Notes under the pieces: model-generated
Told to the model about the DNA's origin: nothing
The model's database searches: none
Seen by the model: the letters and a program-made list of their open reading frames with translations, nothing else
Translations under genes and position numbers: made by a program
NCBI GenBank assembly: GCA_964428725.1
Contig: CAYRYW010000002.1
Coordinates: forward strand, 27,733 to 91,732
Length of the DNA stretch: 64,000 nt
Direction: 5' to 3'
DNA from: an uncultured Dehalococcoidales bacterium
Lineage (GTDB): Bacteria > Chloroflexota > Dehalococcoidia > E44-bin15
Shown here: piece by piece, positions 3,436-28,871 of the stretch
How the letters are laid out: every line of letters begins with the position of its first letter
Position numbering within the stretch: the first letter of the stretch is position 1

Positions 3436-3445
3436 AATATTCATG

Positions 3446-7041: not shown

Positions 7042-7044
7042 GCG

Positions 7045-7437: not shown

Positions 7438-7440
7438 CAT

Positions 7441-8306: not shown

Positions 8307-8309
8307 CAG

Positions 8310-8561: not shown

Positions 8562-8563
8562 GA

Positions 8564-8779: not shown

Positions 8780-8780
8780 G

Positions 8781-8972: not shown

Positions 8973-8994
8973 GGCTGCCAGAAAGAGGATTTAG

Positions 8995-9351: not shown

Positions 9352-9352
9352 A

Positions 9353-10082: not shown

Positions 10083-10085
10083 AGC

Positions 10086-10370: not shown

Positions 10371-10621
10371 TACTCGAAGGGACCGTCAAGAAGAGCAAAG
10401 AGTACTGGTTAGTAGAAGTGCCTGCGATCGATCTTATGACCCAGGGCAAGACTCGGGGCGAGGCGTTGGACATGATAATCGACGCGGTTGAGACCCTGGT
10501 AGATAAACCTGGTTTCAAGGTCGGGATACACGACAGGCGCAAGAACGTGATAGGTGTCTGGTCGGACGATGCTCAGGCTTTTATGGATCTGATGCTTGAG
10601 AGGGGTAAGAAGAGGGAGTAG
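10367..10621 (+). CDS. HicB-like antitoxin-fold protein (UPF0150), orphan
   Basis: GTG start after AGGAGGGG; EYWLVEVPAIDLMTQGKTRGEALDMIIDAVETLV matches HicB N-domain consensus (Y.A.VP.LPGC.TQG.T.EEAL.N..EAI). Confidence 0.5.
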   Translation: MILEGTVKKSKEYWLVEVPAIDLMTQGKTRGEALDMIIDAVETLVDKPGFKVGIHDRRKNVIGVWSDDAQAFMDLMLERGKKRE

Positions 10622-10626
10622 GCTTT

Positions 10627-10643
10627 GCGAACTTGAGTTCGCG
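10627..10643 (+). repeat. palindromic hairpin motif copy 3/12 (TTGA-loop orientation)
   Basis: GCGAACTTGAGTTCGCG 6 nt after stop of HicB-like gene. Confidence 0.7.
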
Positions 10644-10660
10644 AGAGCACGGGGGCTGAT

Positions 10661-10870
10661 ATGATAGAGTGGCCGAGGGTAGAATTTTTTACAGTTAGAC
10701 CTGTAATAGAATGCGGAGAAGAGAAGCGCAGACAGGCCATGGAGGTCCGGTGCAAAAAATGCCCCCACACCGACGAATGCAAGGGATTCCAGTACGGTGA
10801 CAAACTGGGACCTGCGGAAACTGCTGAGTTTTTGCGTATATACAGAGAAGAGTTGACAAACAAAAGATAG
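10661..10870 (+). CDS. hypothetical small protein (CKKCPHTDEC)
   Basis: 69-aa ORF. Confidence 0.4.
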   Translation: MIEWPRVEFFTVRPVIECGEEKRRQAMEVRCKKCPHTDECKGFQYGDKLGPAETAEFLRIYREELTNKR

Positions 10871-10933
10871 CAATGTAAGGGATCTGAGTGAGATGGCGAG
10901 CGACGATGCTCGTCAGAGGCGAAAAGAGGCAAG

Positions 10934-11275
10934 TTGATGGCTGGTTGTAATGGTTGCGAGCACGGGAAAGAAACGTTCAAGGTCGATGTCGTAGGCACGG
11001 TCGTTTATTGCAAGAAAAAGGGCAGGTCCGTGATTCCTGAGTTGTTTAACAATTGCCCTTCTCGTTCTACCATGGAGGGCAAGAAAGTCGCCAGGAGGGT
11101 GTTTCCAGACGAGAATGTGCCGTGCGATAATCCGTTTGATGAAGTGAAGCGTCTTGAGGGTCTTCTCAGGAATGCGAAGCGTGAGAATACCAAATTGCTG
11201 GACATGATAGGCAAGATGCGGGGCGCGAGCGCCGTAGTGATCAAAGCGGCTGATAAGGTATTGGGGGCGGGGTGA
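10934..11275 (+). CDS. hypothetical protein (Cys-containing)
   Basis: 113-aa ORF, GTGA overlap downstream. Confidence 0.45.
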   Translation: MMAGCNGCEHGKETFKVDVVGTVVYCKKKGRSVIPELFNNCPSRSTMEGKKVARRVFPDENVPCDNPFDEVKRLEGLLRNAKRENTKLLDMIGKMRGASAVVIKAADKVLGAG

Positions 11276-11685
11276 GCGAGCACAACAAGAGCGGGGAAAA
11301 ATGGGGAAGGACAGCTACGAAGGCGGCGGCTGTAAAGACGATCTTCGAGGCGGTCAGAACCGGGCGCATTATTCGTCCGGATACCTGTTCACAGTGCGGT
11401 GAAAAGCCGGGACTGGACGCGGTAGGTAATTCAAAGATTCAGGCAATACACACCAAGGGTTATGAGTTCGAGCACAGGATGGACGTGGTCTGGATGTGCG
11501 TGAGCTGTAGGAATAAATTTGCGTGGATAGCCAGGAGAGAGCGAGAGAACGAAAAGTGCGACATCTGCGGGGAGCCGACAAAAAGGGGAGAAGGCGAGCC
11601 CCGGCTGACACAGGTGAACGGAGAGGAACACGACAGTTATCACTCCATCTGTTTCGATTGCTATTTGCCTGGCGGATATGGCTGA
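11272..11685 (+). CDS. CxxC...AIH.KGY.FEHR...CVSCR zinc-ribbon protein (paralog of 5056..5364) plus second CxxC pair
   Basis: Shared motif with 5056 ORF; additional CDICGEP...CFDCY. Confidence 0.5.
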   Translation: MSEHNKSGEKWGRTATKAAAVKTIFEAVRTGRIIRPDTCSQCGEKPGLDAVGNSKIQAIHTKGYEFEHRMDVVWMCVSCRNKFAWIARRERENEKCDICGEPTKRGEGEPRLTQVNGEEHDSYHSICFDCYLPGGYG

Positions 11686-11696
11686 GGAGAAAAGGG

Positions 11697-12107
11697 ATGT
11701 CGGATTACTTTAAGCAGGCGAACGTTGCGTTTTTGATTTTGGCGGCGTTGTCCCTGGAGAAATCACTGGAAATCACGTGGTTCATGACACTGTTTCCGTA
11801 TTTGCTGATAGTGATATGGTGGTTGCTTGATTATCTGGTCCGGCCATGGTTCGGGCTGTCCAGCGAGGACACCTCTGATGACAGCATGGTCAGGGGGCTA
11901 GTGGACGGGACGTTCAATAATGCGAGGGCAGCCAAGTCTGTGTTACGGTACTATTGTGACAGCGTTTGTTCCCAGGATTACGGAGACTCGAAGCATTGTG
12001 AACGGTGTGAGCACATGAGGGCGCGTGAGTTTTTTGAGGCGGTGGATAGCATAGGTGCAAAGATCCGGTCGCGCAAGAGGCTCGAAGGAGAGGGCCGGAA
12101 TGCCTGA
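11697..12107 (+). CDS. membrane protein (2 TM) with Cys-rich C-terminus
   Basis: GAGGAG SD before ATG 11697; ORF track start 11523 overlaps previous gene and is likely spurious extension. Confidence 0.45.
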   Translation: MSDYFKQANVAFLILAALSLEKSLEITWFMTLFPYLLIVIWWLLDYLVRPWFGLSSEDTSDDSMVRGLVDGTFNNARAAKSVLRYYCDSVCSQDYGDSKHCERCEHMRAREFFEAVDSIGAKIRSRKRLEGEGRNA

Positions 12108-12330
12108 AATCGGAGGATCGGTTGCTGAGGTAATCGTGGAGCAGGCTGCGACCATCAAACACCAGGCTGCGGTTATCGAACATCTCAGGAGTGTCATTCT
12201 GGATCTGTGTCCGAGGGTTACGGTGAAGGATGTAGCCGATCTTGTGGCTATAGAGGCGGATCTAAAGAGGGCGGCTGCCAAGCGCAAGGAAATACGAGAG
12301 AAGCACAACATAGGGGGGTCTGATGGCTAA
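12100..12330 (+). CDS. hypothetical small protein
   Basis: GGAGAGGG SD before ATG 12100. Confidence 0.35.
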   Translation: MPEIGGSVAEVIVEQAATIKHQAAVIEHLRSVILDLCPRVTVKDVADLVAIEADLKRAAAKRKEIREKHNIGGSDG

Positions 12331-12733
12331 CTGTCACGAGTGCGAGCACAACGAGGAATTCAATACGAAGTTTGTGTGGTGCGATGCCAAGAAGTGGCAC
12401 GTCGAGCCTCATAACGAGCAGGACTGCAAAGAGTTCAAGAGCACCCTTGGGCGCAAGTTGTCTCCCAGTGAGGCAATCATGGGTTTTGCGCAGTGGCTCT
12501 CTACCCGGAACTATGAAGTTTCGATGTCGTGCCAGTGTGATCGCCGTACGGTCAAGGAGTTGATCGATGCTTATTGCGAATCGAACAATCTGGAGGATCC
12601 GAAGAGCGGGTGGTGGTCCATCTCCAAAGATCCGGGCAGCGATTACATGTCGGAAAGAGAGATAAGAAAATCGAACGAGCTGGGGATACTGGCTCCATTC
12701 AAGAGGGTGAAAAATGGAATGGGTAAAAGATAA
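12323..12733 (+). CDS. Cys/His-rich hypothetical protein
   Basis: 136-aa ORF: CHECEH...C...C...CQCDRR. Confidence 0.5.
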   Translation: MANCHECEHNEEFNTKFVWCDAKKWHVEPHNEQDCKEFKSTLGRKLSPSEAIMGFAQWLSTRNYEVSMSCQCDRRTVKELIDAYCESNNLEDPKSGWWSISKDPGSDYMSEREIRKSNELGILAPFKRVKNGMGKR

Positions 12734-13115
12734 GTTTAAGAATTTCTCTAGCTTGTCCATATGGATGAAGATCCTGACGGTCCTGGCGGCTATCCTGTTC
12801 CCTGTCCTGTTCGTGCTCTGGGTAGTGGGCAAAGTTGCTGGCTACAAAAGAGGATCCATTGCTGACAGAGAGGGTGGGTCGGACGAGGCTCACGAGAGCG
12901 TCGTTGACGTTGCTCTTGACGAGTTGGTTATTGTGGATCTTGGTATAGAGAAAGGCCAGAAAGAGGCAAAGATAAAGAGGCTGATCGCTGAAGAGAAGGT
13001 AATGGAGGAAGACAATGGCCGGAAGGAATTCCATGACAAAGTTGATGCTGCTGCTGACGCTGGTGGCGTCGATACTATTTTACTCTGGAGAGATGATCGC
13101 AGAGGAAAAGACTAG
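12714..13115 (+). CDS. membrane protein
   Basis: 133-aa ORF with N-terminal TM helix. Confidence 0.45.
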   Translation: MEWVKDKFKNFSSLSIWMKILTVLAAILFPVLFVLWVVGKVAGYKRGSIADREGGSDEAHESVVDVALDELVIVDLGIEKGQKEAKIKRLIAEEKVMEEDNGRKEFHDKVDAAADAGGVDTILLWRDDRRGKD

Positions 13116-13542
13116 CGTCGAGTTCGATGCGTTCAGGCTATTGGACTCGGCACCCAAAGCCAGGCGAGAGCTTCCAAGGGGGAAGAAGATAGTAAGAGAC
13201 GGTGTGGAGTACCAGGCTTTCACGGCGCGAGAGCTTGCCGAGATCGTCAAATTGGAAGACGACTATGTGTGGCTCCACAAGCGGTTCTTCCCGCTAGTTC
13301 ACGCGCACGCGCAGGGGCACTTGGAACTCAAGGCGCTGGATAACAGGAAGGCGCTGTGCGATGGTTCGAAGGAGATCCTAACAAGTGATCGCCTGTACTA
13401 CAAAGAGCGACTGAAAGAGAACAAGGCGTATACGCTAAAGCTCTCGAAGAGCGCCAAGGTAGAAAAGGTTTTACTGATAGGTGCTGTATTGATTGAGGCG
13501 GCGATCATAGGGGCGCTGGGCGTCAAGGTTGTTGTTGACTGA
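13015..13542 (+). CDS. secreted/membrane-anchored protein (signal peptide, C-terminal TM)
   Basis: GGAGG SD 6 nt before ATG; hydrophobic N-term LMLLLTLVASILF and C-term LLIGAVLIEAAIIGALG. Confidence 0.5.
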   Translation: MAGRNSMTKLMLLLTLVASILFYSGEMIAEEKTSVEFDAFRLLDSAPKARRELPRGKKIVRDGVEYQAFTARELAEIVKLEDDYVWLHKRFFPLVHAHAQGHLELKALDNRKALCDGSKEILTSDRLYYKERLKENKAYTLKLSKSAKVEKVLLIGAVLIEAAIIGALGVKVVVD

Positions 13543-13556
13543 GAAGGGCGAGAGAG

Positions 13557-13766
13557 ATGAAAGTTGATATTGAGCCGTTCGTTGCGATTGTCATAGTCGT
13601 CGGGATACTGGGGGCCATGTTCATTGGGCAGTACAACTGGAATGTCTGTGAGAAGTGCGATGTTTGCCATGAGGTAGATGTTGACTCTGATGAGCAAGAC
13701 GGCGGAGTCTTTGTTGAGAATGTTCCGTATCAGGTTGTCCCAATAGAGGTTGGAGCTATGCCATGA
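13557..13766 (+). CDS. small membrane protein
   Basis: 69-aa ORF with TM helix and CEKCDVCHE. Confidence 0.4.
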   Translation: MKVDIEPFVAIVIVVGILGAMFIGQYNWNVCEKCDVCHEVDVDSDEQDGGVFVENVPYQVVPIEVGAMP

Positions 13767-13942
13767 CCACGATTCAAGTAATTACAGTTGCTCTTTGTAT
13801 TTTCTCGCTTGCGACTTCATGCTTGGCGTTTGCTCTTACCTTCAGGAAGGCGAGAGGGTCAGAAATAGCCAGGGATAGGACACTCAGGATCTTAGGTGAG
13901 ATAGAGAGAGAAGCTGAAAAGTGGAATAAGGAGATCAGTTGA
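13763..13942 (+). CDS. small membrane protein (59 aa, unlisted)
   Basis: ATG 13763 overlapping upstream TGA; TM helix; stop overlaps next ATG. Confidence 0.3.
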   Translation: MTTIQVITVALCIFSLATSCLAFALTFRKARGSEIARDRTLRILGEIEREAEKWNKEIS

Positions 13943-14250
13943 TGGATTGTTTTGCTTGCGGATATTCAGACACAGGCGGCGACTTCGTGAGGTGCTGGCA
14001 AGGTGACCGAGAGGGGAAGAGGATCAGCAGAGAAGAGTCGATAAAGGGTTGTAAGTATATAGATTGTACTGGTGAAGAGTGGAGGCACCCGATCCAGATT
14101 GCGCCAGCGGAAAAGGGCGTCAAGGGGACTTTGTATGCGCTCTGCAACGATCATACGATCTGGTCTTATGCAGTGGGGGCCAAGGCGTGGTCGCGAATAA
14201 AGGGGATCCCTCAGCGCAAAAAGGGGGAGGAAGTTGATGGAGCGCGTTAA
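13942..14250 (+). CDS. Cys-rich protein with ALCNDHTIW motif (paralog of 15334..15705 C-terminus)
   Basis: 103-aa ORF; GVKGTLYALCNDHTIWSY vs GDKEVVVALCNDGTTWEL. Confidence 0.45.
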   Translation: MDCFACGYSDTGGDFVRCWQGDREGKRISREESIKGCKYIDCTGEEWRHPIQIAPAEKGVKGTLYALCNDHTIWSYAVGAKAWSRIKGIPQRKKGEEVDGAR

Positions 14251-14261
14251 TAGGGAGACAG

Positions 14262-14843
14262 TTGATGCCTGATGATAAATTGAAAGGTTGCCTTACACCC
14301 GTGGAGGTGCTTGAGAAACTGGGATCGGTTAGTTTCGTGAGGCCAGTGACGGATGACACAGAGAGGTACGCTGAGCAGAGTGGGTGGTTAAGATCTCATG
14401 CTGAGGATATTTCCGTCCTTACAATTGAGCATCTAACCGATTTTTGCGCCCTGGATTGCAAAGCGTGCTCTCCTGGCTGCCCCGGCTGCCCGATTGGGTG
14501 CGAGATAGAGATCCGGGCAATGGAGGGCAAAGGGCTCCGCGTTAGGGTGGATGAGAAGGACGGTACTACTTGCATGACCATGATCCACGGCGGGAAAGAG
14601 CCAGAGCCGTTAAGGTTCGACATAGGCCCTGTCGCCGAAGATACGGACGTTATGATGCTGGTCGGAAACGACTTCCGAATTGTGAAGGCCGGGGACTTGG
14701 CTGATCACGTGAACAAGGTCCGGGATGCCAAGGGGGTTAGCAGGGGTCTGGGTTTGAGCGGAGAGGTGGCCAAGGGGCTCAAGGAGAGCGCCGAGCATAT
14801 CAGAAAAATGGAAGCAAAACGCTGGGTGGGCAATGATGAGTGA
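14262..14843 (+). CDS. hypothetical protein (central Cys cluster CKACSPGCPGCPIGC)
   Basis: 193-aa ORF. Confidence 0.5.
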   Translation: MMPDDKLKGCLTPVEVLEKLGSVSFVRPVTDDTERYAEQSGWLRSHAEDISVLTIEHLTDFCALDCKACSPGCPGCPIGCEIEIRAMEGKGLRVRVDEKDGTTCMTMIHGGKEPEPLRFDIGPVAEDTDVMMLVGNDFRIVKAGDLADHVNKVRDAKGVSRGLGLSGEVAKGLKESAEHIRKMEAKRWVGNDE

Positions 14844-15216
14844 CGAGTTGAAAGTTGGAGACGTGGTCTACGGAAAGTCTACAGAATGGGGATGGAGGGG
14901 GATGGTGACCGGTCCCCCTAGAACCATTACCCGTGAGACGAAGACGTTGTGGATAACCGACGAGGGAACGCCGAACGAGCACAGGTGGAAGAAGGCGGGC
15001 ATGGGTTTGAGTCTCTACGATGACAAGGCGAGAGCCGACAGGAAGATCTACCAGGAGAACAAGGAGATCGGGATATTGCTGTACAGGCTGGGAAAGTTCA
15101 GATTCGACAGGCCCAGAGCCTGCACTCCAGAGGTGGCAAATCTTCTGCGGTTGGCTGTTAAGATCCTGTCGGATGAGGAACTGTCAAAGGAAAAGGCAGA
15201 CCTCTCGCCCAAGTGA
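14833..15216 (+). CDS. hypothetical protein (paralog of 7045..7437)
   Basis: 127-aa ORF. Confidence 0.5.
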   Translation: MMSDELKVGDVVYGKSTEWGWRGMVTGPPRTITRETKTLWITDEGTPNEHRWKKAGMGLSLYDDKARADRKIYQENKEIGILLYRLGKFRFDRPRACTPEVANLLRLAVKILSDEELSKEKADLSPK

Positions 15217-15247
15217 ACCATTAGGGGATTCCTGATAGTTGGATGCT

Positions 15248-15264
15248 CGCGAACTTGAGTTCGC
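15248..15264 (+). repeat. palindromic hairpin motif copy 4/12
   Basis: CGCGAACTTGAGTTCGC 32 nt after stop, 7 nt before TTGACA. Confidence 0.7.
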
Positions 15265-15271
15265 AATTCTG

Positions 15272-15300
15272 TTGACAAAGCATCATGCGGCCTGTAAATT
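15272..15300 (+). promoter_or_regulatory. sigma70-like promoter TTGACA-N17-TAAATT
   Basis: ctgTTGACAaag...gcctgTAAATT upstream of 15334 gene. Confidence 0.5.
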
Positions 15301-15333
15301 GCCAGGGTGGAAAGTTGATAGTGGAGGCTGAAA

Positions 15334-15705
15334 ATGAAGATGAAGATTGGCGAGGCAAAAGAGATGATTAAGGTTTGCAGCGATTGTGTTCATGGCCGGG
15401 GTTACTCGGATTTGGTTCACTGTTGCCACCCTAGTGGTAAATTTTCCTTACCCAACATTGACATTAGAACTGCTGAAAAATGCAAATTCTTTCAGGTAAA
15501 GCCGGATTTGGAACGCCCCAGGGTGAGTCCTGTGTCGCGCAAGATTATCGGTATAGCAGGATACGGGGACAAGGAAGTAGTTGTTGCGTTGTGTAACGAC
15601 GGTACGACATGGGAGCTGTGGCGCGAGCTAGTGGATATTCAGAATGGCCAGGCTGAGTACAGGGATTCATGGAGGAAGTTGCCTCCGATTCCACAGGACG
15701 AATAA
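15334..15705 (+). CDS. Cys-containing protein with ALCNDGTTW motif
   Basis: 123-aa ORF downstream of promoter. Confidence 0.5.
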   Translation: MKMKIGEAKEMIKVCSDCVHGRGYSDLVHCCHPSGKFSLPNIDIRTAEKCKFFQVKPDLERPRVSPVSRKIIGIAGYGDKEVVVALCNDGTTWELWRELVDIQNGQAEYRDSWRKLPPIPQDE

Positions 15706-15716
15706 GAAGGTTCAAA

Positions 15717-15956
15717 ATGAATAAAGCAGAGGCAAAAAGAAGGGTCTGCATGGATGTAGCAAGGTATCTGCGTGTCAATGCCGAGCTTGTGTTGGACAGG
15801 CTGGAGGCGCACGCCTTGGATCATAATTCGTTGCCATCGGCGCGAAAAACCGATTCGGAGAGAATGGTGGAGGCTACCTTGGAATTGGCAGCCGAGCTAG
15901 AGCGCCGGGGCACCCGTAGATACAGAGATGAGTCGGGGGACAACCAAGATGTATAA
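15717..15956 (+). CDS. hypothetical small protein
   Basis: ATG 15717 after AAGAAGG. Confidence 0.4.
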   Translation: MNKAEAKRRVCMDVARYLRVNAELVLDRLEAHALDHNSLPSARKTDSERMVEATLELAAELERRGTRRYRDESGDNQDV

Positions 15957-16158
15957 GCCGAACAAGGTTGAGATATTTTTGCCGGATGGAACGAGGCTGT
16001 TCTCGTCCGAGGATAAGCCGCCTGCGAAGAATGCGTACGCCTATCCGCCTCCGGTATCGGGGGTTGTCGGGCTAAAGAGGACGGCCAAGGACGGCGACGA
16101 CTACGATGGCCTAGTTGGTTTTTTGATTGCTGGTAAGGAGAAGGATGATGAGCGTTGA
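15949..16158 (+). CDS. hypothetical small protein
   Basis: ATG 15949; overlaps neighbours. Confidence 0.35.
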   Translation: MYKPNKVEIFLPDGTRLFSSEDKPPAKNAYAYPPPVSGVVGLKRTAKDGDDYDGLVGFLIAGKEKDDER

Positions 16159-17135
16159 TGACAAATAAATCCAAGATAACCTGGACTGACAGAACGTGGA
16201 ACATAATGACAGGATGCACCCAGGTGTCGGACGGTTGCAAATTCTGCTATGCGAAGCGACAGGCTAGGCGGCTGGCGACGATCCCAGGCAGTGGGTACGA
16301 GGGTGACTATGCGCACCCGTTTGACGGCATGGGCTTCGAGGTCCGGCTGAGGCCAGACAGGATGGAGGATCCCAAGGGATGGAGGAAGCCGTCCAAGGTG
16401 TTCGTCTGCTCCATGGGCGATCTGTTTCACGAGGAAGTTCCGTTTGAGTTCATCGGAGAGGCGTTCTATGTAATGGCGCGGACTCCTCAGCATACGTATC
16501 AGGTGCTCACGAAGCGACCGGCACGAATGCTCGAATTCTTTGAGTGGCTGGGCGGCACGAGCGGCGCGGGCTGGATAGCGATGCGTAAGGATTGCGTGTT
16601 CCCTCTCCCTAATGTGTGGCTAGGTGTATCGGTAGAGAACCAGGCGGCGGCGGACGAGCGCATTCCGATATTAGCTAAGGTTCCTGCTGCTGTTCGGTTC
16701 TTGAGCTGCGAGCCATTGCTGGGGTTCGTTAACCTGGGCTTCGGAGGTTCTTTTCCCAGTCATGGCCGATGGGGATGGATGGACAACGAGGTGATTCATC
16801 TCGTAATTGTTGGGGGAGAGAGCGGGCCTGGCGCACGCCCTATGCACCCAGAGTGGGCGATAGATCTGAGGGATCAATGTGTGGGTCACGACGTTCCGTT
16901 CATGTTCAAGCAATGGGGTGAATTCCAGCACGGGAGTGATTTGTCTAGGTCAACTGTGAACAAGATAGTTTTGAACGATGGTCGATATTGCGATACTCCT
17001 GCTGAACTTGGTTTTTCATCATCTGATGCCAGGAAGTGGTACGATCTGGATCCGACCATGATGGGCAAGGTCGGGAAGAAGAAAGCGGGCAGGTTGCTCA
17101 AAGGCAAGCTATGGAACGAGTATCCAAGAGAGTAG
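16155..17135 (+). CDS. phage Gp37/Gp68-family protein (DUF5131-like)
   Basis: TWNIMTGCTQVSDGCKFCYA, FVCSMGDLFHE, RFLSCEPLLG, VIVGGESG...ARPMHPEW, PFMFKQWG blocks match that family as I recall it. Confidence 0.55.
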   Translation: MMTNKSKITWTDRTWNIMTGCTQVSDGCKFCYAKRQARRLATIPGSGYEGDYAHPFDGMGFEVRLRPDRMEDPKGWRKPSKVFVCSMGDLFHEEVPFEFIGEAFYVMARTPQHTYQVLTKRPARMLEFFEWLGGTSGAGWIAMRKDCVFPLPNVWLGVSVENQAAADERIPILAKVPAAVRFLSCEPLLGFVNLGFGGSFPSHGRWGWMDNEVIHLVIVGGESGPGARPMHPEWAIDLRDQCVGHDVPFMFKQWGEFQHGSDLSRSTVNKIVLNDGRYCDTPAELGFSSSDARKWYDLDPTMMGKVGKKKAGRLLKGKLWNEYPRE

Positions 17136-17410: not shown

Positions 17411-17478
17411 GCGATCACGTGCAGAGAGGGTGAACGAAAATGAGAGAATTAATAGAGAGGATAAAAGGAGGCAAGAAA

Positions 17479-17820
17479 ATGGATAGGTACATAGCAGTGG
17501 ACTTGGACGGAACGCTGGCCGAATATCACGGCTGGGTAGGAGTCGATCACATTGGAGAACCGATCCCTAAGATGGTGAATCGAGTGAAAAAGTGGCTGGC
17601 AGAGGGCAAGGATGTCAGAATAATGACGGCCAGGGTTTCTCCTCAGCCGGAGGGAAGAACAGCAACAACGGTTCAAGCAATAGAGCGCTGGTGCTTGGAG
17701 CACATCGGCCAGTTGCTTCCTATAACGCACAGCAAAGACTATGGTATGATTGAGCTGTGGGACGACCGAGCGATCCAGGTTATTGAGAACACCGGAGAGA
17801 GGGCAGACGGCAAAGAGTAA
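17479..17820 (+). CDS. HAD-superfamily-like small phosphatase
   Basis: AAGGAGG SD 8 nt before ATG; IAVDLDGTLAEY (DxDGT motif I). Confidence 0.45.
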   Translation: MDRYIAVDLDGTLAEYHGWVGVDHIGEPIPKMVNRVKKWLAEGKDVRIMTARVSPQPEGRTATTVQAIERWCLEHIGQLLPITHSKDYGMIELWDDRAIQVIENTGERADGKE

Positions 17821-17871: not shown

Positions 17872-18426
17872 ATGTGGGCAACTTTCGTTAGTACCATCAA
17901 ATATCTGGGCGTGATAATCAGGCACAAGTTCTTTGTGATCATTGCTGGCTTCAGGGTAAGGGCTCCGCTCATGCGGCTGCTCAGGCATGACATGTCCAAG
18001 TTCAGCCGGGCTGAGTTTCATCATTATAGGCGACAGTTTTGTGGGGACGCCGGGGATCCTGGCGGGTTCAGAGCAGCGTGGCTTCATCATCAGAACTCAA
18101 ACGATCATCATTGGGAGCACTGGATGCTTTCTAGGCGCATGTCTGCTTCTGAGAGCGCGGGCGCTGAAGTGGCTATGCCGATGCCGGAAGGGGCCGTCAG
18201 AGAGATGGTGGCGGACTGGATGGGCGCAACCAGGGCGTACGGCGGGAAGTGGCCCACGGTGGTGGAGTGGGACTGGTTCGTGGACAAGTGGCCCAGTGTT
18301 AGCAGTAAGATGCACCCGTCCACGAGAGCCAGGGTTTTCGCGGTAATGAGAGAGGCCGGTTATCACGATATTTTGAAGCAAACGGCGGAGTCCAAAACGC
18401 CGGTTCGGGAGCAGTCCGAGGTCTAG
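17872..18426 (+). CDS. hypothetical protein (His/Trp-rich)
   Basis: 184-aa ORF; GGAGGGCAAT ATG. Confidence 0.45.
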   Translation: MWATFVSTIKYLGVIIRHKFFVIIAGFRVRAPLMRLLRHDMSKFSRAEFHHYRRQFCGDAGDPGGFRAAWLHHQNSNDHHWEHWMLSRRMSASESAGAEVAMPMPEGAVREMVADWMGATRAYGGKWPTVVEWDWFVDKWPSVSSKMHPSTRARVFAVMREAGYHDILKQTAESKTPVREQSEV

Positions 18427-18535
18427 GATTCTCCGTCATTTAAATCACCTATAGCATTGCGAGATTTTGGTTTAACGTCGTGGTTGACCCGTGGTAGTGT
18501 TGTCGCAATGTTGCATGAATGAAGAGAGGTTGAAG

Positions 18536-19144
18536 ATGAAGTTTGAATACTATGTTGACAATGTTGTGATGAAGCTGGCGAGCGATGCTGGGGCAAGCTC
18601 CGGGCGGCTGGCTGAGTTGATGAGCAGTAGGCAGTTCGTGGATTTCTTACACGGTACAATCGGTATATCCAGTGAGATGGGCGAGCTTTTGGACGCTTAT
18701 AGAAAAGCAGATGCCAAGCCAGGTCCTATGTCCGATGAGCATCGCCGAGAGGTATTGGGAGAGCTTGGGGATATTTTATGGTTCACGGGCCTAGCTAGTC
18801 GGGCTCTGGGCGCGAGCGTTGAGGTGGGACAAGGGGTCGACAGTGGCAGTCGCAAATGGTCCGGGGATGCGGAGCTGGACATGGTCGTGTGTTCAGGGGA
18901 GCTTCTGTCCATAGCCAAGGCTCGGATCTTCTATGGTCGAGAGATAGCCCCAGGGCTGGCGATTTCAATGCTTAGTCGTATTGTGGACGGGGTGCGATCT
19001 TTGGCTCGCAAGGAGAGATGGACTCTTGAGGATGTAATGAGGGCGAATATTGCCAAACTTTCGAAGCGCTATCCCGAGTTAGAGTTCTCGGACGACAGCG
19101 CCAACAACAGGGACACGGACGCAGAATTCGTGGCCATGGAGTAG
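18536..19144 (+). CDS. MazG-like nucleotide pyrophosphohydrolase domain protein
   Basis: ISSEMGELLDAYRK ... HRREVLGELGDILWFTGLA resembles EExGEL / ELGDxLWY MazG motifs. Confidence 0.5.
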   Translation: MKFEYYVDNVVMKLASDAGASSGRLAELMSSRQFVDFLHGTIGISSEMGELLDAYRKADAKPGPMSDEHRREVLGELGDILWFTGLASRALGASVEVGQGVDSGSRKWSGDAELDMVVCSGELLSIAKARIFYGREIAPGLAISMLSRIVDGVRSLARKERWTLEDVMRANIAKLSKRYPELEFSDDSANNRDTDAEFVAME

Positions 19145-19184: not shown

Positions 19185-19287
19185 TGTTCTGTTTGCAAAA
19201 CAGATTTGACCGTAGTACAGGTTGCCCAGTTTTTTAATTGCCAGTTGAACATTGGACAGGGTGAGTTCGATGAAAAGGAGGGCGAGG

Positions 19288-20232
19288 ATGCTCGGAGCCA
19301 CGTGGGTGATTGGACATCGCGACGCAGATGGTTTTATGTCGGGGTATTTAGCGCACAAGAAGCTGAGCGAATTGGGCGTGCGCGATATAAAGATGCACTC
19401 GATCCAGTACGGAGAGAATCTCCCAAAGATCAATTACGACTTTGACGAAGTGTACATGCTTGACTTTTCGTTGCCTGATCAGGAGATGCGCGAGCTTGCT
19501 GACAAGCTCGGCGATCGGCTCATATGGATAGACCATCATAAGACATCGCTTGATACTGAGAAGAAGATGGAACTGTCCACAGTTCGCGGAGTAAGGATCT
19601 CCTCGGACAATGAGAAGGTTGCAGCGTGCGAGTTGTGCTGGGAGTATTTCTGGCCAGGGCGGAAGGTCCCTGGATGTGTGACGCTGGTAGGAGACTGGGA
19701 TACGTTCCGGTGGGTTGATATGTTGGATGGATCCAATGGCAAGAGGTTCGCTAGGTTCTTCGCTCAGTTTATTGATGGGCTAGGTCTGGATCCGTCCCTC
19801 AAAGAGGCGCGTGACCTTATGGAAGGGTCAATCGAGGAGATACCATCGCTGGAGCATGTTGGGGTCCGAATCGGGAAGATGCTGTGCGAAAAGCAAGACG
19901 CTCTCCACGCTGAGATCATGGAGAATTGCTCATTCACTACGGTGATGACAGTTCCAGAGGGTGATCAGCAGCTTACTGCATTGGTGGTAAACCATCGTGG
20001 CAATAGCTTGATGTTTCAGTCCAAGGTTCAGCCTCGGCATGAGATCCTGGTTAGCTACAGGATGAGGGGGAGAGACTGGGTGGAAGCCAGCTTGTACGGG
20101 GCGTCGGATCATGTCCATTGCGGGGAGATTGCGCGTTCGATAAGCAACGGTAAAGGCGGCGGACACAGGGGTGCTGCTGGGTTCACGATGCCCATGAGTG
20201 AGTTCTACGTGCGCATGGGCATGGATAGATGA
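19288..20232 (+). CDS. DHH/DHHA1-family phosphoesterase (NrnA/RecJ-like core)
   Basis: AAGGAGGG SD; VIGHRDADGFMSG (motif I), YMLDFS, IWIDHHKT (DHH), GGGHRGAAGF (DHHA1 GGGH). Confidence 0.65.
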   Translation: MLGATWVIGHRDADGFMSGYLAHKKLSELGVRDIKMHSIQYGENLPKINYDFDEVYMLDFSLPDQEMRELADKLGDRLIWIDHHKTSLDTEKKMELSTVRGVRISSDNEKVAACELCWEYFWPGRKVPGCVTLVGDWDTFRWVDMLDGSNGKRFARFFAQFIDGLGLDPSLKEARDLMEGSIEEIPSLEHVGVRIGKMLCEKQDALHAEIMENCSFTTVMTVPEGDQQLTALVVNHRGNSLMFQSKVQPRHEILVSYRMRGRDWVEASLYGASDHVHCGEIARSISNGKGGGHRGAAGFTMPMSEFYVRMGMDR

Positions 20233-20492
20233 GCGGCATTCTCAGTCTGAGTAAGTTCCTTTCCAAGAGGGGCAAGGCTGATCTATGTGGTCATGACGTC
20301 ATCGTTATCGACCGAGCGAAGCGCATAGTGATATGCGAGAGGTGCCTTGAGGAGCTGGACCCATTGGAGATGCTTGCCAGGTGCGGAGGTTTCAGTGATC
20401 AAGGAGAGATTGCTATTCAGCCGGGATCAGATAACGATAAGGGTGAGCCGACCCCGTATGCGACCGTGCATCGTTTGCGGCCAAAAAGTTAA
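20229..20492 (+). CDS. hypothetical protein (CERC...C)
   Basis: 87-aa ORF, ATGA overlap with DHH gene. Confidence 0.45.
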   Translation: MSGILSLSKFLSKRGKADLCGHDVIVIDRAKRIVICERCLEELDPLEMLARCGGFSDQGEIAIQPGSDNDKGEPTPYATVHRLRPKS

Positions 20493-22330: not shown

Positions 22331-25300
22331 TTGATAGTTACGACACGCAAGGGGAGAAAGAAGTCTGTAATAACCAAGGAGGAGCTGGCGGCCCATGCCG
22401 GTGACATGGTTGACGCCCTGACAGACGCAGAGCTAGAGCTGGTGATGGGCCTGATAGACGAAGATCCGGAGATTCAGATAGAGCACCACAAGACGATGCG
22501 CGGGCACTTGTACCACCGAGAGCCTGTCTCTATGGAGCAATTCATAGAGGATCCACATTACCTGGGCGAGTCTTGCTCGACTCTCTACCCAGAGCTTAAG
22601 AAAGATCTCATAGATCTGTTTGATTATCCATTCAGAGAAGTTGTGCTCACAGGCGGAATTGGAGTTGGCAAATGCCAACGAGGGGTGAACGAGCTTTATG
22701 ATCCGGTCATGGGGAGAAGGCTAACTGTAGAAGATGCTGCATCTTTTGGCAAGTACAAAGCGTGCGCCACGTTCAACAAGGATGAGCGGAAGACAGTGAG
22801 TGGAGGGTGCAAAGTATTCGAAAGCGGAAGAAAGAAGGCGGGGGATCTCGTGCTTGGGAGCGGGAAGAAGATTGGACTAACTCCTGATCACCCTGTCTTG
22901 ACACCGTGGGGATACAAGCCAGTCGGAGAGCTTAAGAAGGGGGATCTTGTTGCGACTTCGCGAGAGATGCCCTTACCTGAGATGCCTTTGGCTATTTCTG
23001 ACAATGAGGTCAAGTGGGTGGGCTACATCTTGGCAGACGGCGGTGTGACAACGTCTCGGATTGTCTTCGTAAAGGGTGTTGATGAAATAATCTCAGAGTT
23101 TTGGTCTCTGTCGGAATCGCTTGGCGGGGATGTGAAGGAAGAGGATGTGGATGCTGATGCGCGGAGGGTTCGTGTCCTGGGGCTTGATCGCTTGAGGGAT
23201 AAATTTGATCTCAAACACAAGTCCAAGGACAAGAGAGTTCCGAGTGAGTTCTACGGGCTAGACAATCGCCAGCTTGCCTTGTTGCTGAATCGCATTTGGT
23301 CGTGTGATGGATGGTTCTGTCGCAGGGATAAGAAAAAGGGCAACTGGGAGATTGGAATATCCTTAGCCAGTGAGCCGTTCGTGAGGGATATTCAACAGCT
23401 CTTGCTTCGTTTTGGGATTCACTCTCGGATGCGTCCGCGTGAGATGGGGTACACGCACAACGGAGAGAGGAAGCATAGCGATGCTTGGTCTTTGCAGGTG
23501 CTGGGTAGGGATGAAGTTATTAGGTTCTTGAATTCGATTGGAAACCTCGTAGGCAAGGAAGAAGATTGCGAGACTGCGCGGCGCGAACTTGAGTTCGTAA
23601 AGGGCAACTCGAACGTGGACATTACCCCCATGAACAGAGAGGTGATGACCAGGGTTCGTAAAGAGATCGGGCCGGTGCCCAAGAAGGCGTACTGGCCGCG
23701 TCCGGCGCAGGGCTCGCAAATGGGCCACGGGGTGTTCTTGAGATTCGCTGAGGCGTATGATCTTCCCGAGTGGTGCTCCTGGTGGGGTGGAGTATTCTGG
23801 GATGAGGTGGAATCGTATGAGTGCGGCGATGAGTTAGAGCCTGTGTATGACATCGAGGTTCCTAAGACGAGGAACTTCTCAGTGCACGGGGTTATCGTTC
23901 ACAATACGTTCGTGCTCTCAATAGCCATATGCAGGGTGCTTTACGAGCTGTCTTGCTTAGTGAATCCCCAGAAGACTTTCGGCCTGTCGTCGGGTACGGA
24001 GATGGTTATTCCGTTGATCTCAAAGAACCTTCCGCTGGCGCGTGCTGTCATGAAGACGGCGGTTGACGACAAGATCAAAGAGTCTCCGTATTTCATGAAC
24101 GAGTTCTCTCCGAAGATCTCCAAGGAAGCCACGCTGTTTCCTCATAACATCCGAGTGATCATAGGGTCGTACGGTAGTGAGCGAGTTCTTGGCTCGAACG
24201 TTTTCTGTGTTGGGCTTGATGAGTGCCTAATACTAGAGGCAGGTTTGACAACGGAAAGAAAAGGTGTTAGGCGATCCATGACAGTTGGAGATCTTCTGGA
24301 AATGAGTCCAGAGGACGCTGAAAACTGCAAGGTTGTAGGTTTTGATCATGCGGAGAATAAGCTCAAGGCTGGATGGTGGAGAATCAAGAAGTCCACGGTT
24401 CAAGAGCTTGTTGAGATCAGGACTGCGCTGGGGTCGGTATCGCCGTCGAGAAAACATCCCGTTCTTGTCCAAAGAGGAGACTGGCTTGTTTACGTTCATG
24501 CGGAGGATGTCGTCCCTGGCGATTTTGTTGTCATGGAGGATCGTGATGCCAGCGAAGGGGCAGACTGTAAGCGAAGAGCAGAAGAAAAAACAATCGGAGA
24601 AGATGAAGGGTCGAGAGTTATCGGAGGAGACGAAAGAGAAGATGAGATCTGCGCAAAAGGCGCGGTACGAGAATGGGTACGTCAATCCGATGAAGGGGAA
24701 GACTCAGTCAGAGGAGACGAAGAAGAAAATCAGCGAGGCCCAAAAGGGGAGGAAGTTCTCCGAGGAACATCGGCGGAAGATCGGAGAGGCGAATCGCAGA
24801 AGGAAGATCTCGAAAGAGACGCGGGAGCGAATGAGCGAGGCTCAAAAGAGCAAGGCACCTGCAAGCGAGGAGCACAGACGGAAGATAAGCGAAGCCAATA
24901 CAGGCAGGAAGCATACGGACGAAGCTCGTGCGAACATGAGCAAGGCTCAGAAGGGTCGCGCCCTGTCAGAGGATCACAAAAAGAAGCTGTCAGAGGCGGC
25001 CAAGAAGCGCACAGGAGAGGCGAATCACTTCTACGGAAAGACTCACTCCGAGGAGGCGCGGAAGAAGATGAGAGAGGGTCAGGCGGGTGTACAGCGGAAG
25101 CCTCACTCCGAAGAGACAAAGAGAAAGATGAGCGAGTCTCAAAAGGGGCGCAAGTTTTCCGAGGAGACGAAGGAGAAGATGAGAAATGCTGCGAAGCGTC
25201 GTGCAGCCGATCCAGAGTGGCGAAAGAAGATGAGCGAGTCGTCGAAGAGGGGCTGGGCAGAGGGCACCATTGGCCAGAACATGCCACCCCGGCACGGAGA

Positions 25301-28300
25301 GGCGAACCCTTTCTACGGGAAGAAGCACACGGAGGAAACGAAGGCGCGTCTGAGCGAGGTTGCAAAGGCGAGAGAACCTCGCGTGCATACGGAGGCGTCG
25401 AAGGATGCGATTTCCGAGGGGAACATGCGGGCTATCAAGGACGGGACGAGGACGTACAAGTTCCGTGCGACGTCTCCGGATGGTGGGGTTGTGCCTTGCC
25501 GGACAGAGGCGGAGAAGAGACTAGCCGATCATCTTTGTTCTCAGGACGGGGTTGTTTCTGTTGTCGGCGAAGACAAGATGCCGTTTGTGGAGTACGATTT
25601 CAACGGCCAATCCAGGATAACGGTTGCGGACTTCATGGTAACAGCAAGCGACGGTCGAATCATTATCGTAGAAGGGAAGGCGCAGGGGTCGCTATACGGA
25701 GAGAGAGAGAGGGCTCGGTTTCTTGCTACATGGGAGCACTGCAAGGCGTGCGGGTTCGACATGATTATATCATTCAACCATGCAAGGGACCCCGATCTGT
25801 CTCTCGGTCCATTTGTGACACAGGAATTTGTGGAGATGGTGAAACAGGGGTTTGTTCCCATGTCACTGCTTTCGGACAATCGTGCCACTGGGGTTGCGGC
25901 AAGGCGAACGGGCTTTGGGCATCACGGGAAAAGAGTAGCTGGAGGAGACAGAAAGTATCTGTTCAGCACTGTGTCTCCGGACGGGGTGATCGTCAATTGC
26001 AGGACAAGGAACAGCCTGCGTGTAGCCGATCATCTTTGCTCTCAGAGCGGGGTTGTTTCTGTTGTAGGCGAAGACAAGATGAGTGCTATTTATCACAAGG
26101 TGAATGGAGAGGGGCGCCAGACGGTTGCAGACTTCATGGTTACTCGCAGCGACGGACATATTATTTTTGTGAATGTAGAGAGCAACACGTTTGCAGAGAG
26201 CAAGGGCCTCTGTCATCGTATGAATGCAATGTGGGACCATTGCAGGGCTGTCGGTTGCAGTTTCATGATGGTATTTGCCGATGCGTCCGTGGATCCAAAT
26301 GTGTGGGAGGGTCCGTTTGTCACGGATGCGTTTGTCGAGCGCGTCATGGGCACAGGGGTGATTCGACAAGGATTAATGGCCGATGCCAGAGTTCCTGCGT
26401 TGACGGTGGCGTCTCCGAGCGGGAGCACGATCCATTGCGCGACAGAGAAGGAGATGAGGCTGGCGGAGTGCCTATGTCAGCAAGAGGGCGTGGAGTCCAT
26501 TTCCTCAACAAAGAGGGAGTGCGTGGCGAGGTTCGAGTTCGAGGGGCGGGCGCGAAGGGCTGTGGCGGACTTTATTGTTCTCATGCGGGACGGGAGAGAG
26601 GTGGTTGTCTATTCCATACATGGGACAAACGCGAGGAGCGTATCATCAAGGAGTGCGCTCATGGCTATGTGGGATCACTGCAAAGAGATGGGCATGAGCA
26701 TGTTGCTAGCCCTCAAGGAAGCGAGGAATCCAGATCTGTCCCTTGGTCCGTTCGTGACGCAGGAGTTCGTGGATGGGTATATGCGCGGAGATGCCAAGAG
26801 GAGTGCGCTCATAGACAAAAGGCCAAAGGGAAGGAGACCATCTCCGTTGAAGGGCAGGAAACTTGGTCCTCGCAAGAAAATGACGAACTTGAGTTCGCAG
26901 GAATCCGCCCCGAAAGAACACATGTCGAAGAAATCCCTGTCGGTCTTTGCCTCGCGGAAGTAGTGTCCGTTTCTGCCCTGCCCGCTGAACAAACATATTC
27001 TCTATGCACGGAGCATCAGACGTTCATCGCTGATGGGTTCGTGGTGCATAATACGAACTTCCCGCCGAACCGTAAGAGCCAGCAGATCACTACAGCTATG
27101 GGCCAGAAGAAGACAAAGGCTCACTTTGATATTGTGGAGAAGGTCTACCGGAACTTGGTCCGGCGAATAAAGTCCAGGTTCCAGGTTGCAGGCGGGGATT
27201 TCCCTGGGATGATCATCTTGGCTTCTTCGGCTGCTACCCTGGACAGTTTCACTGAGCGGAAAATCCGGGAGAGCAGGCTTGATTCCTCTGTCTTCGTCCG
27301 AGATCACACTCAGTGGACGGCCAAGCCTGGGTCTAACTTCTGCGGGGAGAAGTTCTGGGTTCTGTGTTCGGCGTCCTCTATGCGCTCTAGGATAATCGGA
27401 GACGATGAAGTGAAGCACTTCACCGACGAGTGGCTGGAGGAGAACGATTCTTTTTTGATCGACATTCCGGTTGAGTACAAGTCGGACTTCGAGACAGACA
27501 TTGAGAATGCACTAAGGGACCTTGCTGGTATATCTACTCAGGCTATATCGATTTATATCCAGAGGCCCGACGCGGTGGACGCGTGTGTGAGCGAAGAGAT
27601 GGAGCATCCGTTTACTGCGTATGAGTGGACATCCGGGCAGGCCGGGGCGTTCAAGTGGAACATTCTGTGTAACATGTTCGAGCGTCGGCTGCCTGGCGGA
27701 TACACGGAGACAGCGTGGTCCCCCAAGATTAATCCTTCGAAGATGAGATGGTGTCACATTGATACATCTCTCTCGGGGGACTGTACGGGTTTCTGTGTTG
27801 GTCATATAGACAAGTGGGTTGAGGTAGTAAGGCGAGACGGGGACGGGGTTCGTTACACGGACCTGGCACCCTCTTACGTCATTGACGTGATGTTGCGAGT
27901 GAACCCACCGGCTGGAGAGCAAATCTACATGCCGGACTTGCGTCGTTTCATTTACGAACTACAGGCACATGGTTATCAGTTCCTTGGGTTTTCGTCGGAC
28001 ACATACCAGTCGGCGGAGATGCACCAGCAAGTAAAGAGAAGGGGGATTTCTACCCATATCATATCGACGGATACGTCCACGGATCCTTACGATGAGCTGA
28101 AGATGGCGATGTACGAGAACCGGATTACGTACTATCATTATCAGCCATTTATTGAGGAAATCAAAGACTTGGAATATGATCGCAACGTGGGCAAGATCGA
28201 TCATCAGCAGGCCGGGTGTTTTGTCGGAGAGACGCGGATTCCTCTTCTGGATGGAAGCTGCCCTATGATCTCAGAGTTGGATGGGGTGGATACGTGGGTG

Positions 28301-28870
28301 TACTCCTGTACAGAGGGTGGTCGCATTGTTCCGGGCCGAGCAAGGGGTCGATTAACGAAAGAGGTGACCGAGCTTGTGGATGTGGTTCTGGACAGCGGGG
28401 CTGTCGAGAGGTGTACGCATGAGCACCTTTGGATGTTGAGGGACGGGACGTACAAGAAGGCATGCGACTTGGATCCTGGCATTGACCGTTTGATGCCGAT
28501 TGATTTGAATTCTTTTCCGGTTGAGCACAAGGTCAGGCATGTAACTCCTGTTCGCCTTGATAAGCCGGTGGCTGTGTATGACTTAGAGGTTGAGGAGTAT
28601 TCCAACTTCTCGCTTTCTTCTGGAGTGTTCGTCCACAACTCCAAAGACGTTAGTGACGCAGTAGCGGGTGTGGTGTATGGTTTGATGAAGACATCGACCA
28701 AAATCCCTGCGATTGTGGGCGATAGTAAAAGTGCCGCTGTTGAAAACGAATACGACTGGGTCTCACCTATGATCCAGACGGACGGCATAAGCGCCGAAGA
28801 GCTAAGGGACATGAAGGACGCGGGAGATACAGACGTGTCGGAGTATGTCCCTATTGTGTTTGGAGACTGA
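22331..28870 (+). CDS. terL: terminase large subunit precursor interrupted by three inteins
   Basis: 2179-aa stop-free frame. Exteins: Walker A GGIGVGK|T, Walker [10 protein letters not shown]-terminal RNase-H-like nuclease ([21 protein letters not shown]|[10 protein letters not shown]). TTG start assumed and uncertain. Confidence 0.8.
22673..23905 (+). mobile_element. TerL intein 1 (411 aa) in P-loop, LAGLIDADG homing endonuclease domain
   Basis: Starts Cys after GVGK, block [18 protein letters not shown] motifs GYILADGG and [10 protein letters not shown], ends VYDIEV...[11 protein letters not shown]|T. Confidence 0.8.
23581..23597 (+). repeat. palindromic motif copy 7/12, inside intein-1 endonuclease coding region
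   Basis: GCGCGAACTTGAGTTCG encodes ARRELEFV in frame. Confidence 0.6.
24546..26963 (+). CDS. homing-endonuclease-like protein nested in intein 2 in the +1 frame, with own RBS
   Basis: GGAGGA 5 nt before ATG 24546. About 9 tandem NUMOD3 repeats ([22 protein letters not shown]). Then 3 tandem ~140-aa PD-(D/E)xK-like domains, first intact (E.R...VADFMV...IVEGK), two degenerate. Confidence 0.7.
26883..26898 (+). repeat. palindromic motif copy 8/12, at 3' end of nested endonuclease gene
   Basis: ACGAACTTGAGTTCGC; read as NDELEFAG in terminase frame and MTNLSSQ in endonuclease frame. Confidence 0.6.
28217..28639 (+). mobile_element. TerL intein 3 (141-aa mini-intein) in nuclease active-site motif
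   Basis: [13 protein letters not shown]..., block [10 protein letters not shown], ends [24 protein letters not shown]|S. Confidence 0.75.
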
Positions 28871-28871
28871 T

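Follow-up and report, generated by a model that had tools for sequence, protein, structure and literature searches.

The window analysed here is a 64,000-nt stretch of contig CAYRYW010000002.1 and belongs to a myovirus genome of ∼157 kb, recovered as a 157,265-bp metagenomic contig. We found that it carries a real, intact gene with a strong ribosome-binding site, whose product is a DHH/DHHA1 phosphoesterase and almost certainly an active two-metal phosphodiesterase. Sequence and model together describe a soluble, stand-alone protein that should be catalytically competent. The function that we favour, tentatively and somewhat short of an even chance, is that of a metal-dependent nuclease acting on short linear oligonucleotides and dinucleotides and thereby feeding nucleotide salvage. 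An earlier note, made from the letters alone, had described the gene as a phage-encoded DHH/DHHA1 phosphoesterase; Pfam, PHROG 4771 and an AlphaFold2 model bear this out, and the phage origin is confirmed by genes for a portal, a protease, a major head protein and a tail sheath downstream, with the large terminase at 22331-28870. Both this kind of gene and the idea that it removes immune signals are already in the literature, and the gene is an ordinary member of its family. Only modestly new are the virus-associated replacement of an Arg by Tyr in the DHHA1 domain and the recurrence of DUF5662 as a neighbour.

Active site and predicted fold

The open reading frame (ORF) extends from a TTG codon and spans 19252-20232 on the + strand, and an ATG at 19288 provides the better start. 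We took 19288 as the start and dropped the TTG at 19252 because a Shine-Dalgarno sequence and the N-termini of homologues favour the downstream codon: the equivalent Met is the start or an internal residue in the three closest homologues. The gene call of the Joint Genome Institute (JGI) on the source contig coincides exactly with 19288-20232. One homologue (P0001) differs from the window protein at a single residue, A/V at position 297.

The four motifs quoted in the earlier note are all present, namely HRDADG (residues 10-15), LDFS (58-61), IDHHK (81-85) and GGGH (290-293), and a fifth can be added to them, motif IV, with D138 in GDWDTF. Judged from the sequence, a set of this kind is far beyond chance. 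The Pfam DHH model (PF01368) scores 32.3 bits against a gathering cut-off of 28.1, which together with motifs I-IV places the protein in the DHH superfamily. The Pfam DHHA1 match (PF02272, residues 265-302) reaches 24.4 bits, slightly below its cut-off of 25.9; membership in the DHHA1 group is established by the invariant GGGH, the DHHA1 fold of the model and matches to solved DHHA1 domains. PHROG 4771, annotated as ‘DHH phosphoesterase’, matched residues 10-306 with E = 5e-30. We found no extra domain in the 314 residues: motif I begins at residue 10, only 21 residues follow GGGH, and Pfam returned no further domain.

Conservation was read from an alignment of 68 homologues with 24-81% identity. 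H10, D12, D14, G15, D59, D82, H83, H84 and D138 are invariant, as are G290-G292, H293, A296 and G298 in the DHHA1 domain, where GGGH is followed by an invariant RGAAGF; N235, S240 and S268 are further conserved residues of this domain. A loss of catalytic His or Asp residues, looked for by careful alignment, was thus found nowhere in the protein. The catalytic residues of both domains are also kept in 75 of 80 loci from the IMG/VR database and in all 13 other loci.

An AlphaFold2 model calculated with the homologue alignment as input reached a mean predicted local distance difference test (pLDDT) of 94.7 and a predicted template modelling score (pTM) of 0.88. The model consists of an α/β DHH domain built on a parallel β-sheet (strands 5-10, 34-39, 54-58 and 78-82), an ordered linker with helices 150-164, 172-182 and 191-214, and an α/β DHHA1 domain. 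Searched with Foldseek against the Protein Data Bank (PDB), it matched exclusively DHH/DHHA1 enzymes with E ∼1e-11: archaeal RecJ/Cdc45, mycobacterial NrnA/CnpB, a methanogen PAP phosphatase, Helicobacter pylori 6mtz, Borrelia DhhP, Thermotoga TM1595 and GdpP. The comparison with NrnA and GdpP suggested in the earlier note therefore gave matches to both types (E ∼1e-11, TM-scores of 0.4-0.6). TM-scores of just 0.4-0.6 against solved structures fit a remote relationship and a protein of two domains joined by a hinge.

Matches to predicted viral structures were better (E 1e-19 to 1e-14, TM 0.66-0.73, root-mean-square deviation 4-5 Å), and these proteins already bear the annotation ‘DHH family phosphohydrolase’ or ‘phosphoesterase’. 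They come from the jumbo phages RP12, PhiEaH1, PaBG, ME3 and Y3 and from the giant viruses Klosneuvirus, Marseillevirus, Lausannevirus and others. The viral DHH phosphohydrolases of Ralstonia phages RP12/RP31, Erwinia phage PhiEaH1, Pseudomonas phage PaBG, Acinetobacter phage ME3, Klosneuvirus and Marseillevirus (PHROG 4771) share the two-domain architecture and the size of the window protein at 15-31% sequence identity; with tblastn we obtained ∼31% identity to RP12/RP31 over the DHH domain. The best structural matches are thus viral, and the family as a whole has members from both viruses and cells. An ordered helix between the domains, as seen in the model, has been described as typical of the viral and cellular DHH groups 4 and 5 (10.64898/2026.07.21.739742).

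Placement in the superfamily and the Tyr270 variant

When the family profile was compared with all PDB sequences, H. pylori 6mtz ranked first (E = 3.2e-12, both domains aligned), followed by enzymes of the NrnA/CnpB/Pde type, chiefly via the DHHA1 domain (1e-9 to 1e-7), and by GdpP and archaeal RecJ near 1e-5. In the PDB 6mtz carries the label ‘uncharacterized’. Its homologues are named ‘3′-to-5′ oligoribonuclease B’ (Campylobacter jejuni, 46% identity), ‘3′,5′-cyclic-nucleotide phosphodiesterase’ and ‘oligoribonuclease NrnB/cAMP/cGMP phosphodiesterase’, and by these names 6mtz is assigned to the NrnB clade that Myers et al. 2025 describe from Campylobacterota; its sequence is absent from their supplement. 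COG2404, the NrnB group, is also the name given by JGI to several homologues of the window protein (25-34% identity).

Since 6mtz is the best profile match, the COG2404 names agree and other assignments fail, we file the protein, on sequence grounds, among the DHH/DHHA1 proteins in a branch related to NrnB, and not as NrnA, RecJ, GdpP or a pyrophosphatase. With NrnB of the 6mtz clade it shares the stand-alone DHH/DHHA1 architecture, the helical linker and a short C-terminus like that of NrnB clades B and C; the basic C-terminal extension of clade A (>100 amino acids after DHHA1) is absent. The two differ in overall sequence (13-15% identity, TM ∼0.4) and at residue 270, where 6mtz keeps an Arg and the window protein has Tyr.

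Four other placements were rejected. The NrnA subfamily was excluded because its RxRxR motif is absent: NrnA, CnpB, Pde2 and TM1595 resemble the window protein in fold and catalytic motifs (DHHA1 match E 1e-9 to 1e-8, fold E ∼1e-11), whereas they carry this motif and have a short or disordered linker in place of an ordered helical one. Membership in the RecJ or archaeal RecJ-Cdc45-GAN group was discarded since the NCBIfam RecJ models, which are the sole NCBIfam matches, reach 20-29 bits where their cut-offs lie at 360-550 and cover the first ∼100 residues only. The model, with its two core domains, contains no OB-fold, CID or other DNA-binding extension. An assignment to GdpP or to the membrane-associated DHH-DHHA1 ring nucleases (MAD) fails on the lack of an N-terminal transmembrane, PAS, GGDEF or anchor region; the GdpP catalytic domain gave a weaker profile match of 28.4 bits. 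Family II pyrophosphatase, the exopolyphosphatase PPX1 and prune were set aside as there is no DHHA2 match and a DHHA1 domain with GGGH is present; the family II pyrophosphatase match runs via the DHH domain only (E = 3e-4).

In NrnA the RxRxR motif of the DHHA1 domain contacts the substrate backbone and the 5′-phosphate (PMC9779919, PMC9757072). At the corresponding place the window protein reads S-L-Y270-G-A-S-D, and judged by its position residue 270 would correspond to the first Arg of the motif. In the profile alignment 6mtz and 9wbu_B, a chain of the NrnA type from a mycobacterium, have Arg at this position, and Tyr is found in 64 of the 68 aligned family members. In order to count independent occurrences, 92 mostly viral loci and the window were grouped at 60% identity into 33 clusters, 30 of which carry Tyr. 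Arg prevails in cellular genome assemblies (59 of 80 loci). The Arg-bearing loci include Comamonadaceae genes (13 examined, all in conserved chromosomal surroundings) and a Methanosarcina gene in a chromosomal neighbourhood. Tyr occurs at 18 genome loci; among six that were sampled, three have phage-type DNA or RNA enzymes as neighbours (ExoV/Dda-like with SbcC-like genes, an RNA ligase and RtcB, respectively), one more has an unnamed PHROG match only and one has none. Across these loci the Tyr/Arg difference is a real and simple marker that splits virus-associated from chromosomal members, and it offers a concrete mutational handle on substrate choice in DHHA1 domains.

Candidate substrates and physiological role

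The NrnB enzymes tested so far (Bacillus subtilis, H. pylori and others) are 3′-5′ exonucleases that prefer dinucleotides and short RNAs; the B. subtilis enzyme also cuts a DNA 5-mer and hydrolyses neither cyclic di-AMP (c-di-AMP) nor 3′-phosphoadenosine 5′-phosphate (pAp) (PMC10570053, PMC12709177). Other DHH/DHHA1 enzymes cut cyclic dinucleotides or cyclic tetra-adenylate (cA4) (PMC7824862). We favour a salvage nuclease because NrnB is the nearest characterised branch, the architecture is a minimal two-domain one, the neighbouring genes include nucleotide hydrolases and homologues sit in metabolic neighbourhoods.

The gene, its fold, the intact active site, the family placement and the gene context are shown by the data above; which metal the enzyme uses, what it cuts, from which end and to what benefit for the phage are inferences. 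The DHH domain would hold two divalent ions (Mn2+ or Mg2+) via H10, D12, D14, D59, D82, H83/H84 and D138, and the ions would activate a water molecule for attack on the phosphodiester bond. The DHHA1 domain, through GGGH 290-293, N235, S240, S268 and Y270, would clamp a small nucleotide substrate against the metal site, swinging on the ordered helical linker. Very short linear oligonucleotides and dinucleotides of RNA, and probably of DNA, would be converted to mononucleotides, the substrates being end products of the breakdown of host and phage nucleic acids. The enzyme may work within a cluster of nucleotide phosphohydrolases (HAD-like, DUF5662 and MazG-like proteins), with nucleotides recycled for the replication of the ∼157-kb genome. 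It would then be the DHH-fold counterpart of the oligonucleotidase DexA of phage T4. DexA, a non-essential exonuclease encoded by the phage, carries out the last step in breaking oligonucleotides down to mononucleotides that can be salvaged; the analogy would be one of function only, and the fold of DexA, a DEDD exonuclease, is unrelated. If the window protein is a nanoRNase or nanoDNase, it would add one more large phage with its own last step of nucleotide recycling, a result useful for annotation and unsurprising.

At least 312 viral contigs of IMG/VR carry a relative of the gene. The best cellular relative (29% identity) lies on a contig of a Desulfurivibrionaceae metagenome-assembled genome that itself looks phage-like, and a megablast search of 50,697 phage records with the 20 kb surrounding the gene returned no match and thus no close DNA relative. 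For a survey of neighbours, all ORFs within 6 kb of the 92 homologues were clustered and recurrence was counted over the 33 independent clusters. No general operon partner emerged. DUF5662 lies within this distance in 4 of the 33 clusters and is the sole non-transposon family to do so in four independent lineages; the remaining top recurrent families are IS200/IS605 transposases. Outside the window DUF5662 genes were located at 10122-10835 (L005), 7148-7669 (L010 and L011) and 12067-12645 (L013). Families found in two lineages are dCMP deaminase, ribonucleotide reductase, DNA ligase, RNA ligase, calcineurin-like phosphoesterase, DNA methylase and DUF1643, and ribonucleotide reductase and dCMP deaminase genes also lie near the homologues P0012 and P0112. 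RtcB, RNA ligase, SbcC-like and ExoV-like genes adjoin further homologues. Genes for RNA ligase or RtcB no more than a few kb from homologues were noted at 2916-3914 in L049, 2973-4244 in L103 and 8977-10242 in L170. No known anti-defence gene recurs among the neighbours within 6 kb of the 92 homologues. The gene tends to sit in modules of nucleotide and nucleic-acid metabolism and not in a fixed operon.

Several points weigh against a salvage nuclease. Tyr replaces the canonical Arg and RxRxR is missing, so that the protein differs from both NrnB and NrnA at a substrate-contacting position, and because of this its substrate choice may differ from that of all characterised enzymes. The neighbourhood is not a conserved operon, with the best partner, DUF5662, found in just 4 of 33 lineages. 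The link to NrnB is remote: identity to 6mtz is ∼13-15%, and solved structures gave Foldseek TM-scores of only 0.4-0.6. Furthermore, degradation of 3′3′-cyclic GMP-AMP (cGAMP) and other messengers has been described for a DHH enzyme of mimivirus and possibly extends to one from a phage (10.64898/2026.07.21.739742).

Such messengers are the substrates in the strongest competing explanation, which we consider possible but unlikely: the enzyme would hydrolyse 3′3′-cGAMP, cyclic tri-, tetra- and hexa-adenylate (cA3/cA4/cA6), c-di-AMP or others made by cyclic oligonucleotide-based antiphage signalling systems (CBASS), type III CRISPR or related systems, and the phage would thereby escape abortive infection. 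The DHH/DHHA1 fold is capable of such hydrolysis, and jumbo-phage DHH enzymes were proposed by Iyer et al. 2021 to counter CBASS (SMODS) and type III CRISPR signals (PMC7824862). A preprint of July 2026 surveyed viral DHH enzymes and divided them into five groups, of which groups 4 and 5 are virus-rich (10.64898/2026.07.21.739742); the ordered inter-domain helix of the window protein is like that of these two groups. According to the same preprint, mimivirus R106 degrades 3′3′-cGAMP and many other messengers, and one phage DHH enzyme blocks cGAMP-STING signalling and possibly degrades cGAMP (10.64898/2026.07.21.739742). R106 and the other screened viral enzymes resemble the window protein as viral DHH/DHHA1 proteins with an ordered helix between the domains, a likeness drawn from their description only. 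It also speaks for this explanation that the DHH proteins most similar in structure come from jumbo phages and giant viruses, that the virus-enriched Tyr in place of a phosphate-binding Arg could reflect a changed substrate, and that the gene is the last in a long run of small accessory genes. However, R106 and the phage enzyme are the only two viral DHH enzymes named as active against cGAMP in the 2026 screen, with no further tested one named as active, and the mimivirus enzyme is dispensable in its host (10.64898/2026.07.21.739742). No known anti-defence gene is nearby and the recurrent neighbours are genes of nucleotide and nucleic-acid metabolism, and the nearest characterised branch, NrnB, leaves c-di-AMP uncut.

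The earlier note had put forward an anti-CBASS, anti-type-III CRISPR or anti-Thoeris nuclease, or otherwise a nanoRNase for nucleotide salvage. The second proposal fits the results better. The anti-defence role is unsupported, although not refuted, because the nearest solved relative by profile belongs to the NrnB branch, the neighbours are nucleotide and nucleic-acid genes and no PADLOC model matched the protein; sequence, fold and neighbourhoods do not favour cyclic over short linear nucleotides. If the protein were a true degrader of immune messengers, a widespread DHH-fold family with members in at least 312 IMG/VR contigs would join Acb1, Apyc1 and AcrIII-1.

A more specific variant of the immune-messenger explanation, which we regard as distinctly unlikely, builds on the Tyr itself. 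The Tyr-for-Arg form (S-L-Y270) might mark a virus-specialised lineage with a retuned pocket that no longer grips the 5′-phosphate and backbone of linear nanoRNA and instead stacks on cyclic messengers; such enzymes would hydrolyse cGAMP, cA3/cA4 and others and form a broad-spectrum anti-CBASS and anti-type-III family in hundreds of phages, perhaps together with the HD-like DUF5662 protein.

Very unlikely, too, is a small RecJ-like exonuclease for single-stranded DNA that would serve phage recombination, repair or the degradation of host DNA ends. Archaeal RecJ/Cdc45-type proteins are among the top fold matches (E ∼2e-11, TMq up to 0.61), RecJ models give the only NCBIfam matches, and in one locus (L092) the homologue lies directly downstream of ExoV/Dda-like and SbcC-like genes. 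These RecJ scores remain far below their cut-offs, the 314 residues form two core domains only, with no OB-fold, CID or other DNA-binding extension, and no recombination genes adjoin the gene in the window. Least probable of all is a phosphomonoesterase acting on pAp, 2′,3′-cyclic or 3′-phosphate ends, polyphosphate or alarmones in RNA-end healing or the removal of stress signals: the methanogen PAP phosphatase 8a8k and bifunctional NrnA-type enzymes are found among the sequence and fold matches, but matches to nucleases are at least as good; NrnB does not act as a phosphatase on pAp (PMC10570053); some relatives in Bacillus phages are annotated as ‘exopolyphosphatase’, but DHHA2, the mark of the pyrophosphatase/exopolyphosphatase branch, is lacking; and the RNA ligase and RtcB genes near homologues in several independent loci, together with a HAD-like protein in the window that is weakly similar to the phosphatase domain of polynucleotide kinase phosphatase (PNKP), hint at a link to RNA-end repair, but this association is anecdotal.

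Neighbouring genes and other features of the window

All credible genes of the window lie on the + strand. GC skew is positive in all 2-kb blocks but one, and the cumulative skew climbs steadily. The DHH gene ends a long block of small accessory genes, most of them without a family match, and is preceded by genes for DUF5131, HAD-like, DUF5662 and MazG-like proteins, in this order. Coordinates are collected in Table 1.

Table 1. Positions in the window of the DHH/DHHA1 gene, its domains and motifs, and adjacent genes
Feature	Position	Strand	Evidence or remark
DHH/DHHA1 phosphodiesterase gene	19288..20232	+	314 aa; ORF, Pfam, PHROG, AlphaFold2, JGI gene call
Shine-Dalgarno AAGGAGG	19274..19280	+	∼8 nt before ATG 19288; read from sequence
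DHH catalytic domain, ∼residues 1-145	19288..19722	+	Invariant motifs and model
Motif I, H10-x-D12-x-D14-G15	19315-19332	+	
Motif II, D59	19462-19464	+	
Motif III, D82-H83-H84	19531-19539	+	
Motif IV, D138	19699-19701	+	
Ordered helical linker, ∼residues 146-214, including long helix 191-214	19723..19929	+	Model, pLDDT >90 throughout
DHHA1 substrate-binding domain, ∼residues 215-314	19930..20229	+	Pfam DHHA1, conservation, model
Y270, where canonical DHHA1 has Arg	20095-20097	+	Profile alignment
GGGH, residues 290-293	20155-20166	+	
Small HAD-like phosphatase, 126 aa, motif DLDGT	17440..17820	+	PHROG 1238 1.6e-9; PHROG 415 (polynucleotide kinase family) 3e-7
DUF5662 protein	17872..18426	+	Pfam DUF5662 2.4e-29
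MazG-like nucleotide pyrophosphohydrolase	18491..19144	+	Pfam MazG 29.9 bits (cut-off 22), PHROG 229 2.7e-26
87-aa ORF, C-x-H...C-x-x-C pattern	20229..20492	+	ATG overlaps DHH stop codon (ATGA)

The MazG-like and HAD-like neighbours pointed out in the earlier note are real. For the MazG-like gene the JGI call starts at ∼18536, and the gene is syntenic in two relatives (L002 and L003). The HAD-like assignment is the weaker of the two, with Pfam HAD_PNKP reaching merely E = 0.08. In DUF5662 the residues H18, H39-D40, K43, E48, H73, N77, H79, E111 and D115 are invariant, a pattern that is HD-like, and the confident model is all-helical. A profile search of PDB sequences found no match to it, and Foldseek gave no significant one (best E = 1.2; several HD proteins at E 4-9 and TM ∼0.3); no mention of DUF5662 was found in the papers searched. 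The 87-aa ORF downstream is overlapped by 4 nt in the same way in the close relatives L001-L004, which carry a homologous ORF, and a homologue also lies near the DHH gene in L013; its only matches are weak ones to PHROGs without an assigned function. PADLOC models matched neither the DHH, DUF5662, MazG-like and HAD-like proteins nor the 87-aa ORF.

Further upstream, the DUF5131 (Gp37/Gp68) protein at 16155-17135 (+) matched its Pfam family with 6e-92 and, weakly, a ‘radical SAM mobile pair protein A’ model. It also matches the PADLOC candidate defence components PDC-M41B and PDC-M30B with ∼1e-78. A 135-aa ORF at 3524-3931 (+) showed a weak match to PHROG 355, ‘nucleoside 2-deoxyribosyltransferase’ (E = 1.4e-5), and most of the remaining ORFs in 1-16000 match no family.

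More striking than the DHH gene, and indeed the most striking thing in the window, is a stretch of the terminase gene that looks dual-coding. The terminase ORF at 22331-28870 (+) encodes 2179 amino acids and contains three inserts that resemble inteins (Pfam Intein_splicing 4.6e-25, LAGLIDADG_3 4.5e-13). In the second of them the +1 frame is open at 24342-26963 and encodes 873 amino acids with five NUMOD3 motifs (Pfam E = 1.3e-43) and three repeats of a weakly TnsA-N-like domain. Across these 2622 nt the terminase frame contains 0 stops. In 2000 codon shuffles used as a control we obtained a mean of 53.5 stops with a minimum of 35, and in 2000 synonymous resamplings a mean of 64.5 with a minimum of 42. 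The translation of this stretch in the terminase frame is junk-like. From the sequence this looks like 2.6 kb of dual coding, in which a homing-endonuclease-like gene is overprinted on an intein that needs to be read through. The adjoining ORF at 28845-31718 (+) encodes a portal protein of 957 amino acids that matches the portal family in two separate stretches, and its residues ∼430-600 form an HNH-endonuclease-like segment; because of the split matches and this segment, the sequence suggests that the portal carries another mobile insert, an intein or an HNH element.

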